From an uncultured archaeon (GTDB taxonomy: Archaea > Thermoproteota > Bathyarchaeia > 40CM-2-53-6 > CALIRQ01): a stretch of DNA of 64,000 nt. A program made the position numbers and the translations under genes. This document shows, in pieces, positions 2,552 through 40,232 of the stretch. The DNA lies in contig CALIRQ010000006.1 of the NCBI GenBank assembly GCA_938042195.1, positions 46,868 through 110,867 of the forward strand, given 5' to 3'. The notes under the pieces were generated by a model. That model was not told the DNA's origin. It worked only from the letters and a program-made list of their open reading frames with translations, and ran no database searches. Within the stretch, counting starts at the first letter, position 1; every line of letters begins with the position of its first letter.

Positions 2552-3529
2552 CTAACGCATCCAAACGACCTTCGCTCCACCGCAGGGCCTAGCGACGAGG
2601 GGTTCGCATTTCAGGCCCACCTCGGAGAAGCCCTCCGCCATGGCCTTCGCCACCTCGGATGCCTTGGCCGCCGTGTTATCCACGACCGCCAGCATTGTCG
2701 GTCCGGATCCGCTTATGGCGACCCCGCATGCCCCAGCCTCGTATGCCTTCTTCTTAACAATATCATAGCCGGGTATGAGCTTGGCCCTAATTGGCTCGAC
2801 TATGGCATCGACCATCCCGGATCCGATCGTGGACACATCGCCCCTGAGGATCCCCGCGACGATGCTCGATGCCCTCCCAATGTTCCGCGCCACCTCGCCC
2901 AATGGGACCTGAGCAGGGAGCATGGCCCTAGCCTCCTTCGTGCTGATCTCTATATCGGGTATGGCTATAGCGAGTTCCAGGTTAGGCGGCGGATCCATCC
3001 CTATAGCCCTCAGGGGGTCATAGGATTGTATCAGTACGAAGCCCCCCAATATCGCGGGCGCCACGTTGTCCGCATGGGGGGATCCAGCGGAACACAATTC
3101 CCCAAAGGCTGCTAGGGCTACGAGCTCATCCTTGGGAAGGCCCAAGCCCAATAGCCTATCCAGCCCCACTATGGCGCCAGCGGCCGAGGCCCCGCTGCTG
3201 CCCAAGCCCTTTCCGACCGGTATGTTCTTCTCAAGCCTTATCCTTATCCCCCGCTCTATCCCGAATTTTTCAAGGAAGTGCTTAACGGCCAAACAGGCCG
3301 AGTTGGCGTCTTGCTTCCTCGGGACGAGTTTACCATATCTACCGGAGAGCTCCAATTCCAAGTATCGCTTCCCGCATTCCTCCAACTCCTCCAGCTCCAC
3401 CGCGTCCCAAAAGGCCCCAACCGCCATGCCGAATACGTCGAACCCAGGGCCAAGGTTCGCTGTTGTGGAGGGTACCTCGACCCTGATCGCTGAATGATTA
3501 TTCCCCCGGCCTCCATTTACCGTGGCCAA
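2552..3529 (-). CDS. thrB: Homoserine kinase (GHMP family)
   Basis: PSTTANLGPGFD, PVGKGLGSSGASA, HADNVAP, ISGSGPT. Start codon uncertain. Confidence 0.93.
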   Translation of the reverse strand: MATVNGGRGNNHSAIRVEVPSTTANLGPGFDVFGMAVGAFWDAVELEELEECGKRYLELELSGRYGKLVPRKQDANSACLAVKHFLEKFGIERGIRIRLEKNIPVGKGLGSSGASAAGAIVGLDRLLGLGLPKDELVALAAFGELCSAGSPHADNVAPAILGGFVLIQSYDPLRAIGMDPPPNLELAIAIPDIEISTKEARAMLPAQVPLGEVARNIGRASSIVAGILRGDVSTIGSGMVDAIVEPIRAKLIPGYDIVKKKAYEAGACGVAISGSGPTMLAVVDNTAAKASEVAKAMAEGFSEVGLKCEPLVARPCGGAKVVWMR

Positions 3530-13430: not shown

Positions 13431-13564
13431 TGGCGGGCCCGCCGGGAATTGAACCCGGGGCCACCGGGTCTCTCCCCGGGGGTAAAAGCTTCGCCGGCGC
13501 CCCGCGACGCCACCGGTGCTCTACCTGGCTGAGCTACACGGCTCCTTTGGGAGCTTACGGGCCC
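13431..13564 (-). tRNA. tRNA-Lys(UUU) with three introns (9/10, 30/31, 37/38)
   Basis: Removing 13555-13535 (21 nt), 13512-13490 (23 nt) and 13482-13470 (13 nt) leaves a 77-nt cloverleaf: GGGCCCG UA GCUC AGCCAGGUA GAGC A CCGGG CUUUUAA CCCGG UGGCC CCGGG UUCAAUU CCCGG CGGGCCC G CCA. Each junction forms a BHB-like fold. Confidence 0.9.
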
Positions 13565-14071: not shown

Positions 14072-15610
14072 TTGGCTTGGAGGGATTATTTGAAGGACGG
14101 TATCCAGCTCCCGGATCGAGTTTACGTCTTTGACACCACATTAAGGGATGGCGAGCAAACGCCTGAGGTATCGCTTACCCCCGAGGAGAAGTTGGCCATA
14201 GCCAAGCAATTGGATGCCTTGGGCGTCGACGTAATAGAGGCGGGCTTTCCGGTGATATCCAAGGGCGAGATGGAGGCCGTCAAGACGATATCTGAGGCGG
14301 GCCTCAAAGCCGAGATATGCGGATTGGCCAGGGCCGTTCAAAGGGACATAGATGTGGCGGTGGATTGCGGCGTGGATTGCGTTCACACGTTCATAGCCAC
14401 CTCGGAGGTGCATATGGCGAAGAAGCTCAAGATGACCAAGGAGGAGGTATTGGCCAGGGCCGTGGAGGCGGTGGAATACGCGAAGTCGAGGGGCGTAGTC
14501 GTGGAATTCTCGGCCGAGGATGCTACTAGGAGCGATTGGGACTTTTTGTTGGAGGTATACACGGCCGTTGAGAGGGCTGGGGCCGATAGGATAAACGTGC
14601 CGGATACGGTAGGATTCGCCATCCCGAGGGCCATGTTCCAGCTCATAAGGAGATTGAAGGATAGGATCCGGGTGCCGATATCAGTCCATTGCCACAACGA
14701 TATGGGGCTTGCCGTTGCCAATTCCCTCGCCAGCGTTGAGGCAGGGGCCGAGCAGGTACACGTGACCGTTAACGGCCTCGGGGAGAGGGCTGGCAACGCG
14801 AGCTTGGAGGAACTGGCCGTATGCCTCAATGTCCTCTACGGCATCCCGACGAACATAAAGCTGAGCGAAATCTATAAGACCTCCCAGATGGTCTCCTCCA
14901 TGACCGGGGTCATCGTCCAGCCGAATAAGGCGATAGTCGGCAGCAATGCCTTCGCCCACGAGAGCGGGATCCATACGCACGGCGTGATATCGTCCCCCGA
15001 TACCTATGAGCCGATAAGCCCGGAGCTCGTCGGCCGATCGAGGAGGCTTGTGGCCGGCAAGCACGCCGGGAGGCATGGAGTGGAGGAGATGTTGCGCGAG
15101 ATGGGTTTCTCGCTCACCAAGCAACAAATAGACGAGATCTTGGCAAAGGTGAAAGAGATAGGGGATAAGGGCGGCAAGGTAACGGATGCCGACTTGGCGA
15201 GCATGGCCGAGGCCCTGACCGGCTCCCTGCCCCCGGAGGAGAGGAGGATAAGACTCGAGGACTTGATCGTGGTCACCGGGAATAAGACCACGCCGGTCGC
15301 GACCGTCAGGCTGTTGATCGATGGGAAGGAGTATAGGAGTTCCCACTTCGGCGTTGGCCCAATAGATGCCGCCATAAAGGCCGTGAAGAACGTGGTCTCC
15401 GAGGTCGCGGCGTTCGACTTGGTGGAGTTCAGGCTCGATTCCATAACCGGCGGCACGGAGGCCTTGGCGAACGTCATAGTGAAGTTGGCCGACGAGAGCG
15501 GGAGGCTCGTTTCCACGAGGGCCGTTAGGGAGGACATAGTGATGGCGGGCGTGGAGGCGATCATCAATGCCGCCAATAGGTTGCTTTACCTCAGGGAGAG
15601 GAAGCCATGA
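14072..15610 (+). CDS. 2-isopropylmalate / citramalate synthase family (LeuA/CimA)
   Basis: DTTLRDGEQ, HCHNDMG, GLGERAGNA, AFAHESGIH, C-terminal regulatory domain. Substrate specificity cannot be assigned from sequence. Confidence 0.9.
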   Translation: MAWRDYLKDGIQLPDRVYVFDTTLRDGEQTPEVSLTPEEKLAIAKQLDALGVDVIEAGFPVISKGEMEAVKTISEAGLKAEICGLARAVQRDIDVAVDCGVDCVHTFIATSEVHMAKKLKMTKEEVLARAVEAVEYAKSRGVVVEFSAEDATRSDWDFLLEVYTAVERAGADRINVPDTVGFAIPRAMFQLIRRLKDRIRVPISVHCHNDMGLAVANSLASVEAGAEQVHVTVNGLGERAGNASLEELAVCLNVLYGIPTNIKLSEIYKTSQMVSSMTGVIVQPNKAIVGSNAFAHESGIHTHGVISSPDTYEPISPELVGRSRRLVAGKHAGRHGVEEMLREMGFSLTKQQIDEILAKVKEIGDKGGKVTDADLASMAEALTGSLPPEERRIRLEDLIVVTGNKTTPVATVRLLIDGKEYRSSHFGVGPIDAAIKAVKNVVSEVAAFDLVEFRLDSITGGTEALANVIVKLADESGRLVSTRAVREDIVMAGVEAIINAANRLLYLRERKP

Positions 15611-15691
15611 GGAAGCTGGGAGGATCGCTAGGGGATTCCGCAATATTTTTTAATCGAGTTGGCGGGCATCATTCTTCGCCCTGGGCGAAGG

Positions 15692-15816
15692 GCCCTGGTA
15701 GTATAGAGGTATTAAAGATACCGTAAAACCCGGCCTAGTATGTGCGGCTGTCGCCCGCACGACGCGGGTTCAAATCCCGCCCAAAAGGGACCATAATCCC
15801 TTGGCGAGGGGCGCCA
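15692..15816 (+). tRNA. tRNA-Asp(GUC) with two introns (15/16 and 68/69)
   Basis: Removing 15707-15728 (22 nt) and 15784-15808 (25 nt) gives a 78-nt cloverleaf: GCCCUGG UA GUAU AGCCCGGCCUA GUAU G UGCGG CUGUCGC CCGCA CGAC GCGGG UUCAAAU CCCGC CCAGGGC G CCA. Confidence 0.9.
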
Positions 15817-15935
15817 AACCCGCGTCGGAGGGAATCCGAATCACGGGCCTCCTCGGCCCCTAGAGCGAGCCCCGAGGGCTTGGAAACGCAAAAATTTTAT
15901 GCTCGATGTCCCCATCCATTACCGGTCCCGCGGAT

Positions 15936-17916: not shown

Positions 17917-18501
17917 CTTCGCCGGGGCTTTTTCCCATTATCTTTTCCTTTTTATGCGCCTCATAGATTCTGCGACCTACTATATCGAGCCCTCAAATTC
18001 GATCTCGAAGCCCACCGGGATCGCATGGACCCGATCCCAACCGATGGCGGCCCATGATGCCCCCGGGCCTCTTTGGGCCCGAGCGGCTCCATGCGGCCTC
18101 ATCTTCGGCAAAGACCTGAACGCTGGGGCCAAGGGCCTAGTCGATAGGGGGATCCCAAGGGGTCAATCGCGGAGAAATCCCTTCCCATAGGGATCATCGG
18201 GGGCCGAGCCAAAGCAATCCCATCGGAGGGAATAAGTCCGCGAGATCGCCTATGCCCTTTACTAAGGTCGGATTGTTGAGGGGGGCCAAGCGGCCGTTAT
18301 GATCCGTGCTCCATTCGCCCCGGAGGCTGTTGATGGCGCGGACGTTTGGGCGGGCCATGCGGACCACATGATGAATCAATGCCGTGTATATCCACCATAT
18401 GCCCAATCGAAGGGAATGGAGCGACTCTAAAATCCAGATTGCTCAGGGCCTTCGCCCGGGGCCTCGCTTGAATCCCGAGGCGATCCTCGTCAAGGATGCG
18501 A

Positions 18502-18612
18502 TGGCGGGCCCGCGGGGATTCGAACCCCGGATCCTAGGCTCCCCCCGCATCGCTCCGAAGGCCTCCACGCCCGAGCGGCGCTATGTCCTGATCCAGGCTA
18601 GACGACGGGCCC
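18502..18612 (-). tRNA. tRNA-Arg(UCG) with two introns (29/30, 37/38)
   Basis: Removing 18580-18563 (18 nt) and 18554-18541 (14 nt) restores the anticodon arm UAGGC-CUUCGGA-GCCUA; acceptor GGGCCCG/CGGGCCC, G73, CCA. Confidence 0.88.
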
Positions 18613-38437: not shown

Positions 38438-38526
38438 GCCTTCGGGCAAGGCCCATGGGATTATCCCTCAGGCCTCTCCAATCCCGATAATATTAAATAG
38501 GCGGGTTTTCCCTTCCAACGTTCAAG

Positions 38527-38624
38527 GCATCCGGGGGAGCTGGGGGAACCCGGCTGAGAGGGTGGCAGATCCGCCACCGACCCTTGGAACCTGATCCGGG
38601 TAATGCCGGCGAAGGGAGGGATGC
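38527..38624 (+). promoter_or_regulatory. TPP (THI-box) riboswitch
   Basis: P1 GCAUCC/GGAUGC; conserved GCUGAGA, GACCC, GAACCUGAUC and GGGUAAUGCCGGCGAAGGGA; TATA-like ATTAAATA about 30 nt upstream; directly upstream of thiW. Confidence 0.93.
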
Positions 38625-38724
38625 GGTGGATGGGCTATCCGCCGAAGCCCAGCCGAGCGCTGGGGCTCCTTCTCCGATCCGGATCCGTTCCCCCGGGTGC
38701 ATCGAAGCTCGGAGGTGAATGCAT

Positions 38725-39312: not shown

Positions 39313-39942
39313 GTGAAGGGATCGACGCTGGCTCGCAGGAGGATTGGCCCGGAGGAGGGCATCCCCTTTCGAGAATTGCTGGGCAGGAGGGTCCTGATCC
39401 TAGGGGAGGTCGGGAGCGGGAAGAGCAGGCTCACCGCCAAATTGCTCGGGGAGGCTGTCCGCCTAGGCTATTCGAATAGGATTGCCGTGATCGATCTATC
39501 TCCGGAGATAAGGCTTCCCTCCGGGGAGGTCGTGGGGGCCCCCCTCACCCGCTATATGGAGATAGGGCCGCCGATCAAATACATGAGGCCCTCTGGGATC
39601 AGGGCCCCGAGGCTCGAGGGGAGGGATCGAGAGGAGGTATTGAGGTTTGCCGAGGAGAACGCGAGGGCCATAGAGGCCGTTTTCGACGAGTACCTGAGGG
39701 AGGCGCGGGAAATCCTTTTCATGAACGACGTCAGCATATACCTCCATAGAGGCGGACTGGACCGTTTGCTCTCGGTCCTCTCCGAGGCGGATACCTCTAT
39801 ATTAAATGGATACCACGGGGCCCGCCTCAGCGAGGATAGGGGTTCGGGCATCTCGAAGAGAGAGAGGGCCCTGATGGAGGATTTGGCCGATAGGATGGAT
39901 TTGCTCATCGAGATGGATCGCTCTTCCACGGAAGGCCTTTAG
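39313..39942 (+). CDS. P-loop NTPase of unknown function (HerA/DUF87-like N-terminus)
   Basis: VLILGEVGSGKS Walker A followed by IAVIDLSPE. Confidence 0.7.
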   Translation: MKGSTLARRRIGPEEGIPFRELLGRRVLILGEVGSGKSRLTAKLLGEAVRLGYSNRIAVIDLSPEIRLPSGEVVGAPLTRYMEIGPPIKYMRPSGIRAPRLEGRDREEVLRFAEENARAIEAVFDEYLREAREILFMNDVSIYLHRGGLDRLLSVLSEADTSILNGYHGARLSEDRGSGISKRERALMEDLADRMDLLIEMDRSSTEGL

Positions 39943-39957
39943 CTATAGACCGAGGTT

Positions 39958-40081
39958 TGGTGCGGGGGGTGGGATTCGAACCCACGAAGGCCTGCGCCAC
40001 AGGATATCGCATCCTGCGACGGATCTTAAGTCTGGCACCCCGTTGGGCCCTGCCCCTTTGGCCTGACTCGGGAACCCCCGC
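39958..40081 (-). tRNA. tRNA-Leu(UAA) with two introns (30/31, 37/38)
   Basis: Removing 40048-40032 (17 nt) and 40024-40006 (19 nt) gives an 88-nt tRNA with anticodon arm CAGGA-CUUAAGA-UCCUG, a long variable arm, A73 and CCA. Confidence 0.88.
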
Positions 40082-40138: not shown

Positions 40139-40232
40139 GGGCCCGTGGCTCAGCCTGGATAGGGTTAAGGGCGTCCAAAGCGGCGGCCTCCTAAGTCGTA
40201 GGTCGTGGGTTCGAATCCCACCGGGCCCGCCA
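40139..40232 (+). tRNA. tRNA-Arg(CCU) with one intron (22/23)
   Basis: Removing 40163-40178 (16 nt; central helix GGAU/GUCC) restores the D-stem GCUC/GAGC; anticodon CCU; CCA encoded. Confidence 0.9.

Follow-up and report, generated by a model that had tools for sequence, protein, structure and literature searches.

A tRNA-Asp gene of an uncultured archaeon with a putative intron at position 68/69 and a 3' trailer complementary to its T-stem

[quoted passage not shown] The question is raised by a tRNA-Asp(GUC) gene that encodes its own CCA and contains two inserts, located at positions 15692-15816 (+) of a 64,000-nt stretch of DNA from an uncultured archaeon (hereafter, the window), since the second insert lies between A68 and G69, in the 3' strand of the acceptor stem. 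The reviewed positions of archaeal tRNA introns run from 20/21 to 59/60, the acceptor stem being represented by 3/4 (PMC4090602). That introns occur in the acceptor stem is stated, in general terms, in a 2025 paper (PMC12397907), and tRNAscan-SE 2.0 lengthens its candidates by 60 nt so that introns close to the termini are included (PMC8450103). Position 68/69 is not named in the literature that we searched on archaeal tRNA introns, the primary position catalogues lying outside that search. Nothing on 68/69 was found in the papers on tRNAscan-SE 2.0 and on Atabeyarchaeia, nor, within the literature searched, in those that pair Bathyarchaeota with tRNA introns.

The explanation that we favor, with high confidence, is that of a functional tRNA-Asp(GUC) gene with two protein-spliced BHB introns, of which the one at 68/69 would be presented to the endonuclease EndA in an alternative fold assisted by the 3' trailer. 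It is built on what sequence and comparison establish, namely the gene, the BHB geometry, the conservation and covariation of this geometry, and a conserved and covarying complement in the trailer.

The tRNA-Asp gene and its two inserts

Read from 5' to 3', the gene at 15692-15816 consists of GCCCTGG, TA, GTAT, AG, a 22-nt insert, CCCGGCCTA, GTAT, G, TGCGG, CTGTCGC, CCGCA and CGAC, continued by GCGGG, TTCAAAT, CCCGC, CCA, a 25-nt insert, GGGC, G and the terminal CCA. When both inserts (15707-15728 and 15784-15808) are deleted, ARAGORN recognizes a 78-nt tRNA-Asp(gtc) with a perfect cloverleaf, a 7-bp acceptor stem and an encoded CCA. The same program makes no call on the unspliced gene, and the Rfam tRNA model covers 15696-15783 only, ending at A68 with 33.7 bits. 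The spliced cloverleaf delimits exon 1 (G1-G15; 15692-15706, +), exon 2 (C16-A68; 15729-15783, +), for which the Rfam model gives additional support, and exon 3 (15809-15816, +), which comprises G69-C72, the discriminator G73 and the encoded CCA. Exon 2 contains the remainder of the D-arm, the anticodon arm (GUC), a 4-nt variable loop, the T-arm and C66-A68. Without both inserts, the tRNA carries G73, GUC, C38 and a wobble G10-U25 pair, the identity elements known for tRNA-Asp in yeast and E. coli. No second tRNA-Asp gene is found within the 64-kb window. About 40-50 nt upstream of G1, an A/T-rich box read from the sequence (AATATTTTTTAAT; 15642-15654, +) is a candidate archaeal TATA element; it is kept upstream of the orthologous genes at three related loci (L121, L139 and L216) and may be a promoter element.

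The second insert (intron 2; 15784-15808, +) has the sequence AAAGGGACCATAATCCCTTGGCGAG, which can be divided into a bulge A, a hairpin AAGGGA/UCCCUU with the loop CCAUAA, the strand H' (GGCG) and a bulge AG. Upstream of it lie the 3' strand of the T-stem (CCCGC, 15776-15780) and C66, C67 and A68 (15781-15783). The T-stem strand plus C66 (15776-15781, +) provides the 5' strands of the motif, namely those of the outer helix h (C61 C62) and of the central helix H (C63-C66). The central helix has exactly 4 bp (CGCC 15778-15781 with GGCG 15803-15806) and the inner hairpin h' has 6 bp (AAGGGA 15785-15790 with TCCCTT 15797-15802), while the outer helix consists of 2 bp that are invariant in relatives (C15776 and C15777 with G15810 and G15811, i.e., C61-G71 and C62-G70). 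Two 3-nt bulges are found on opposite strands, CA↓A at 15782-15784 and AG↓G at 15807-15809, with the splice sites (arrows) placed symmetrically within them. The hBHBh' class is defined by at least two Watson-Crick pairs in both h and h' (PMC7714728); intron 2 belongs to it in the strict sense, with the central helix, the bulges, h and h' all present and a canonical tRNA on excision.

The initial annotation, made from the letters of the window alone, had proposed that 25 nt interrupt CCA↓GGGC at 68/69 and form a textbook BHB. Both the sequence and the spliced cloverleaf bear out its coordinates, and every element (CGCC/GGCG, CA↓A, AG↓G, AAGGGA/UCCCUU and CC/GG) is where it had been placed. It had also held that the motif can form only if the T-stem and the acceptor stem melt, which is indeed the case, the central helix using nt 63-66 and the outer helix nt 61-62 and 70-71. 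The D-loop intron, the wide conservation and the 3' trailer element go beyond that first reading. Judged from its sequence, the spliced cloverleaf, its relatives, covariation and RNAalifold, the 25-nt insert is a genuine noncanonical BHB intron, whose splicing we infer; the predicted spliced junction reads CCCGCCCA↓GGGCGCCA.

The first insert (intron 1; 15707-15728, +) is a 22-nt element of the D-loop, at about 15/16, whose removal is required for the cloverleaf. Its BHB is a relaxed one, with three of the four possible pairs in H (GUAU/GUAA), an h' of GGUAU/AUACC, and bulges AG↓A and AA↓C. A U-A pair of h' is replaced by C-G in the sister species and in L139 (GGTAT/ATACC to GGTAC/GTACC in the sister species), and h' reads GAGCG/CGCTC in L219, the exons remaining unchanged. 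More generally, the hairpin of intron 1 covaries among the relatives L121, L139, L216 and L219.

Conservation and covariation of the 68/69 intron

The gene immediately upstream (14072-15610) encodes a 2-isopropylmalate/citramalate synthase, with a best match of 94% amino acid identity in 'Candidatus Bathyarchaeia archaeon' MAGs. Eight contigs of this sister species share the gene order of the window (DUF498, synthase, tRNA-Asp, 2-hydroxyacid dehydrogenase and superoxide dismutase). [quoted passage not shown] Taken together, loop-only changes in intron 2 and a compensatory pair in intron 1 are the pattern expected under selection on the fold and not on the sequence. In more distant relatives, the neighborhoods of homologues at 65-70% identity no longer show the linkage to tRNA-Asp.

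Wider relatives were sought in metagenomes using a tRNA-Asp-specific pattern that requires a gap of 16-46 nt before GGGCGCCA. Both the insert and the encoded CCA were obligatory, and the counts below hence cover insert-bearing, CCA-encoding tRNA-Asp genes only and are no measure of the frequency of intronless genes in the clade. Among the matches listed, 71 of 86 distinct metagenome sequences carry the insert exactly at 68/69, as does the window. After removal of duplicates, the scan and the window together provide at least 72 distinct versions of the 68/69 intron, with lengths of 24-32 nt and bulges that are always CA↓N and either AA↓G or AG↓G. The central helix is paired at 4/4 positions in 71 of 72 versions among the matches listed, and the length of h' ranges from 3 to 10 bp in relatives, compared with 6 bp in the window. 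Most informative is the exchange at the T-stem: among the matches listed, a CCCGC strand pairs with an H' of GGCG in 60 versions and a CCCGG strand with GCCG in 11, a Watson-Crick compensatory change (C-G to G-C) that joins nt 49, nt 65 and the intron.

One version (L153) combines G65 with the T-stem 5' strand GCGGG and the intron end GGCG. As it is mismatched in the T-stem and in the central helix alike, it probably reflects an error of sequencing or a copy in decay.

Covariation was evaluated on an alignment of ungapped 29-nt constructs, from which the hairpin interior had been removed. In the observed register, 98.4% of the cells are paired, against 32-57% in slid registers. Changes on both sides affect 6 of the 11 pairs (all five h' pairs and one H pair), and none of 500 shuffles attained the observed covariation score. 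RNAalifold, run on 18 diverse full modules with no structure supplied, recovered the central helix, a 3-nt bulge and the inner helix. Because the insert is kept in the sister species and in at least 72 versions with covariation, we take a chance match or a pseudogene to be ruled out. A separate scan of contigs with the short 3' anchor GGCG gave, among the matches listed, unrelated tRNAs and tmRNAs, none with an acceptor-stem intron, and two intronless DPANN tRNA-Asp genes that serve as controls below.

All genes with the 68/69 intron share the 5' acceptor strand GCCCTGG and vary in their other introns. Most have none; an intron at about 15/16 marks the group of the window and one at about 20/21 a second group, and a further group has three introns. 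Since the 68/69 intron is common to lineages in which the D-loop introns differ or are absent, it is, on this comparison of sequences, older than the D-loop introns and the most widely shared. The proteins encoded beside the commonest type cluster with proteins of 'Candidatus Bathyarchaeia archaeon' MAGs; an acyl-CoA synthetase was ambiguous when taken alone, and the cluster members decided. Next to one CCCGG-type gene, a protein shares 98% identity with one that bears the label 'Thaumarchaeota archaeon' (Thaumarchaeota/Nitrososphaerota subgroup), and the intron family may extend beyond Bathyarchaeia-labelled MAGs, or the labels may be loose. Neither EndA nor RtcB appears in the Pfam lists of the neighborhoods compared.

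The 3' trailer and the folding of the precursor

When the flanks were compared, an 11-nt element was found to begin directly after the CCA. This strand (AACCCGCGTCG; 15817-15827, +), which we call 'anti-T-stem', is the perfect reverse complement of 15760-15770 (+; CGACGCGGGTT), a segment that comprises the variable loop, the 5' strand of the T-stem and U54-U55, and that both sequence and folding designate as its pairing partner. Among the matches listed, a contiguous complement of 6-11 nt (mode 9) is present in 81 of 81 distinct gene-plus-trailer combinations, and the full 5-bp match to the T-stem 5' strand in 78 of the 81; shuffled trailers reach a complement of at least 9 nt in 0.4% of trials. 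Positions flanking the 5-bp core are paired in 74-91% of cases and the helix ends in 8-22%. Genes of the GCGGG type have a CCCGC trailer, never CCCGG, and genes of the CCGGG type have CCCGG or CCTGG at different distances from the CCA, a covariation that stems from few independent substitution events among related sequences. The variable offset of the trailer made alignment with MAFFT and RNAalifold unworkable, and the trailer helix was thus analyzed by a custom script.

The complement is absent from the tRNA-Asp class that has an intron in the T-arm, whose trailers are T-runs, and from two intronless DPANN tRNA-Asp genes. The four other tRNA genes of the window also lack it, their best matches being 5-7 nt long, rich in G-U pairs and found at scattered offsets.

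When the precursor is folded without its flanks, the central helix (probability of about 0.55) and the T-stem (about 0.44) are alternatives, the acceptor pairs 1-4/69-72 reach about 0.87 and the 2-bp outer helix about 0. In other lineages folded without the trailer, the T-stem is predicted to win outright (H at about 0.08). Inclusion of the trailer brings the T-stem to 0, the trailer helix to about 1.0 and H to about 0.8, with a similar outcome at 60 °C (central helix at about 0.55-0.7), and a single rod is obtained for the 68-nt module 15760-15827 (z = -4.65). In these models, the trailer abolishes the T-stem and favors the BHB helix, which would explain how the T-stem comes to be melted. The 2-bp outer helix with its 3-nt 3' bulge obtains a probability of just 0.04-0.12 in nearest-neighbor models, which favor a slipped outer helix of 3 bp whose 3' bulge is reduced to 1 nt. 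For the spliced product, the model still prefers the trailer helix to the cloverleaf (-40.7 vs about -34 kcal/mol); release or trimming of the trailer would perhaps involve enzymes, tertiary contacts or modifications that lie outside the energy model.

From the conserved elements we infer cleavage, the enzymes that perform it, splicing before 3' trimming and a causal role of the trailer, according to the following scheme. By pairing with the variable loop and with the 5' strand of the T-stem, the first 11 nt of the trailer would displace the T-stem, which would free C61-C66 and lengthen the outer side of the BHB. The 3' end of the intron (GGCG) would pair with C63-C66 to give the 4-bp central helix, C61-C62 would pair with G70-G71 to give the outer helix, and the intron's own hairpin would provide the inner helix, the 3' third of the precursor thereby becoming one rod made of the trailer helix, an internal loop and the BHB. 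With splice sites after the second base of each bulge (CA↓A and AG↓G), EndA would cleave both bulges and an RtcB-type ligase would join A68 to G69; the trailer would then be trimmed, and the T-stem and the 7-bp acceptor stem would form. As the trailer would be needed to free C61-C66, splicing should precede 3' trimming.

Extending this scheme, we put forward a more tentative proposal, to which we give somewhat less than an even chance. The 68/69 intron of tRNA-Asp would be ancient and obligatory across Bathyarchaeia and allied TACK lineages, and its BHB would be possible only via the anti-T-stem strand of the trailer, an undescribed cis-acting switch that would place splicing before 3'-end maturation. 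Some lineages would add a mirror intron at 4/5 that relies on the 5' leader, both acceptor strands being then interrupted.

The intron could also be genuine and the trailer complement do other work, such as 3'-end processing, termination or stabilization of the precursor. In that case, EndA would need no help to capture the BHB conformer, or would act on two half-motifs (HBh' at the 5' site) with the pairs 1-4/69-72 kept. Part of the folding results agree with this, since the minimum free energy structure computed without the trailer retains these acceptor pairs (about 0.87) alongside H and h', and the strict outer helix is disfavored in every model; moreover, broad-specificity EndAs cut relaxed motifs (PMC3239211), and a trailer helix would impede the final folding. 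However, we consider such a division of roles unlikely, because the complement follows the T-stem sequence across lineages at differing offsets, because it is missing from tRNA-Asp genes with an intron elsewhere or none and from the other tRNAs of the window, and because its predicted effect is to free precisely the strand needed by the BHB.

Two further readings are rejected because of the conservation and covariation described above. That the locus is a disrupted, non-functional tRNA-Asp pseudogene with a fortuitous BHB-like fold would agree with the failure of standard tRNA finders, which miss the gene or score it low, but is highly improbable in view of perfectly conserved exons that give a flawless cloverleaf, of an insert retained with compensatory changes in at least 72 versions across deep lineages, of the conserved upstream A/T box and of the absence of another tRNA-Asp gene from the 64-kb window. 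Even less credible is that the insert and the trailer repeat are att-site scars of a mobile element integrated at the tRNA 3' end: although elements commonly integrate at the 3' ends of tRNA genes, rearrangements are concentrated at tRNA-Asp loci in Desulfurococcales (PMC3218864) and GCCCTGG occurs again in the leader, the trailer element is an inverted complement and no direct repeat of tRNA sequence, the insert is just 24-32 nt long with an exact BHB geometry, insert and trailer both covary with the T-stem, and no integrase was seen beside the gene in the syntenic loci L121-L128.

Relation to known systems and further features of the loci

The trailer-assisted BHB intron that we favor belongs to a known kind of element; what appear different are its site, its lasting retention in a single isoacceptor throughout a large uncultured group, and its trailer-assisted presentation, for which no precedent was found in the literature searched. 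The noncanonical BHB introns of Crenarchaeota/Thermoproteales, the 3/4 acceptor-stem intron among them (PMC4090602), are likewise short, protein-spliced, of the 3-4-3 bulge-helix-bulge type and located outside 37/38. They too can occur several per gene and have a BHB built partly from exon bases, so that the mature fold is excluded. The tRNA-Asp intron differs from them by its location at 68/69, in the 3' acceptor strand, by its hosts, which are Bathyarchaeia-type MAGs, and by a trailer element that seems to aid the folding of the precursor. In addition, it has been kept at one site of one isoacceptor in deep lineages, in contrast to the recent transposition reported for Thermoproteales (PMC4033280).

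In the split and permuted tRNAs of Nanoarchaeum, Caldivirga and Thermofilum (PMC4090602, PMC3218864), leader and trailer pair to build the BHB. There, as proposed here for tRNA-Asp, non-mature sequences help to form the endonuclease substrate and splicing must therefore precede end trimming; however, the tRNA-Asp gene is contiguous, and its trailer would sequester a T-stem strand and extend the outer side, not form the BHB itself. A likeness also exists with the processing stems of archaeal 16S/23S rRNA (PMC7714728), where a long helix of distant flanks carries a BHB recognized by the same endonuclease. The predicted rod 15760-15827 resembles these stems, but it belongs to a tRNA precursor, its helix has just about 11 bp and one of its strands lies within the mature tRNA. 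Finally, the noncanonical tRNA introns of Thaumarchaeota, for which tRNAscan-SE 2.0 has its own BHB model (PMC8450103), come from a related TACK lineage, and one 68/69 subgroup is found on contigs with proteins labelled Thaumarchaeota/Nitrososphaerota.

The 68/69 intron indicates that a BHB intron can lie deep in the 3' acceptor strand and persist for very long in a major uncultured archaeal group, which contrasts with the view, based on Thermoproteales, of noncanonical introns as recent and mobile. One possibility for the long retention of the 68/69 intron is a role, cited in PMC3218864, in shielding the 3' end of the tRNA against integrating elements. If the trailer works as proposed, it offers a testable answer to how an endonuclease sees a BHB excluded by the mature fold, and it would fix the order of the processing steps. 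At a practical level, standard tRNA finders miss or mislabel such genes, and Bathyarchaeia genomes can thus appear to be without tRNA-Asp.

The 5' leader of the window's gene contains a perfect 7-bp hairpin (CTTCGCC-CTG-GGCGAAG; 15674-15690, +), which forms in the minimum free energy structure, stops one base before G1 and contains GCCCTGG, the sequence of the 5' acceptor strand, a second time. Its core, GCCCTGGGCGAA, is the reverse complement of mature nt 63-73. We do not retain this hairpin as part of the mechanism for now, since its stem shows no covariation and only GCCCTGGGCGAA is conserved (in L121, L139 and L216).

Other tRNA-Asp architectures were encountered in the metagenomes. Genes with three introns, at 4/5, about 20/21 and 68/69, occur in L134, L138 (about 3050-3252), L150, L196, L211, L224 and L240, and removal of all three gives a 78-nt tRNA-Asp. 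Their 4/5 intron directly faces the 68/69 site across the acceptor stem (C4-G69, U5-A68), and its BHB uses the leader bases -4 to -1 together with G1 and C2. An AT-rich lineage has an insert of about 30 nt in the 3' strand of the T-arm (TTCAAATCC-GCG...ACT-CCCGG TGTGGGCGCCA) and T-run trailers (L144, L147, L157-L159, L168, L175, L176, L198, L200, L205, L209, L226 and L248).

Elsewhere in the window, the gene at 40139-40232, labelled tRNA-Leu(caa) by ARAGORN, is a tRNA-Arg(CCU) whose D-arm is interrupted by a 16-nt intron (about 40163-40178), the removal of which leaves a clean 78-nt cloverleaf. Three further CCA-ending tRNA genes, at 13434-13543 (-), about 18420-18535 (-) and about 39870-39995 (-), also seem to be interrupted by introns; ARAGORN misses them or gives doubtful calls, and their 3' acceptor strands are intact. 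The window additionally carries, at 38523-38635 (+), a full-length match to the TPP riboswitch aptamer, which scores 71.7 bits for a gathering score of 54.3, in what is apparently a Bathyarchaeia genome.
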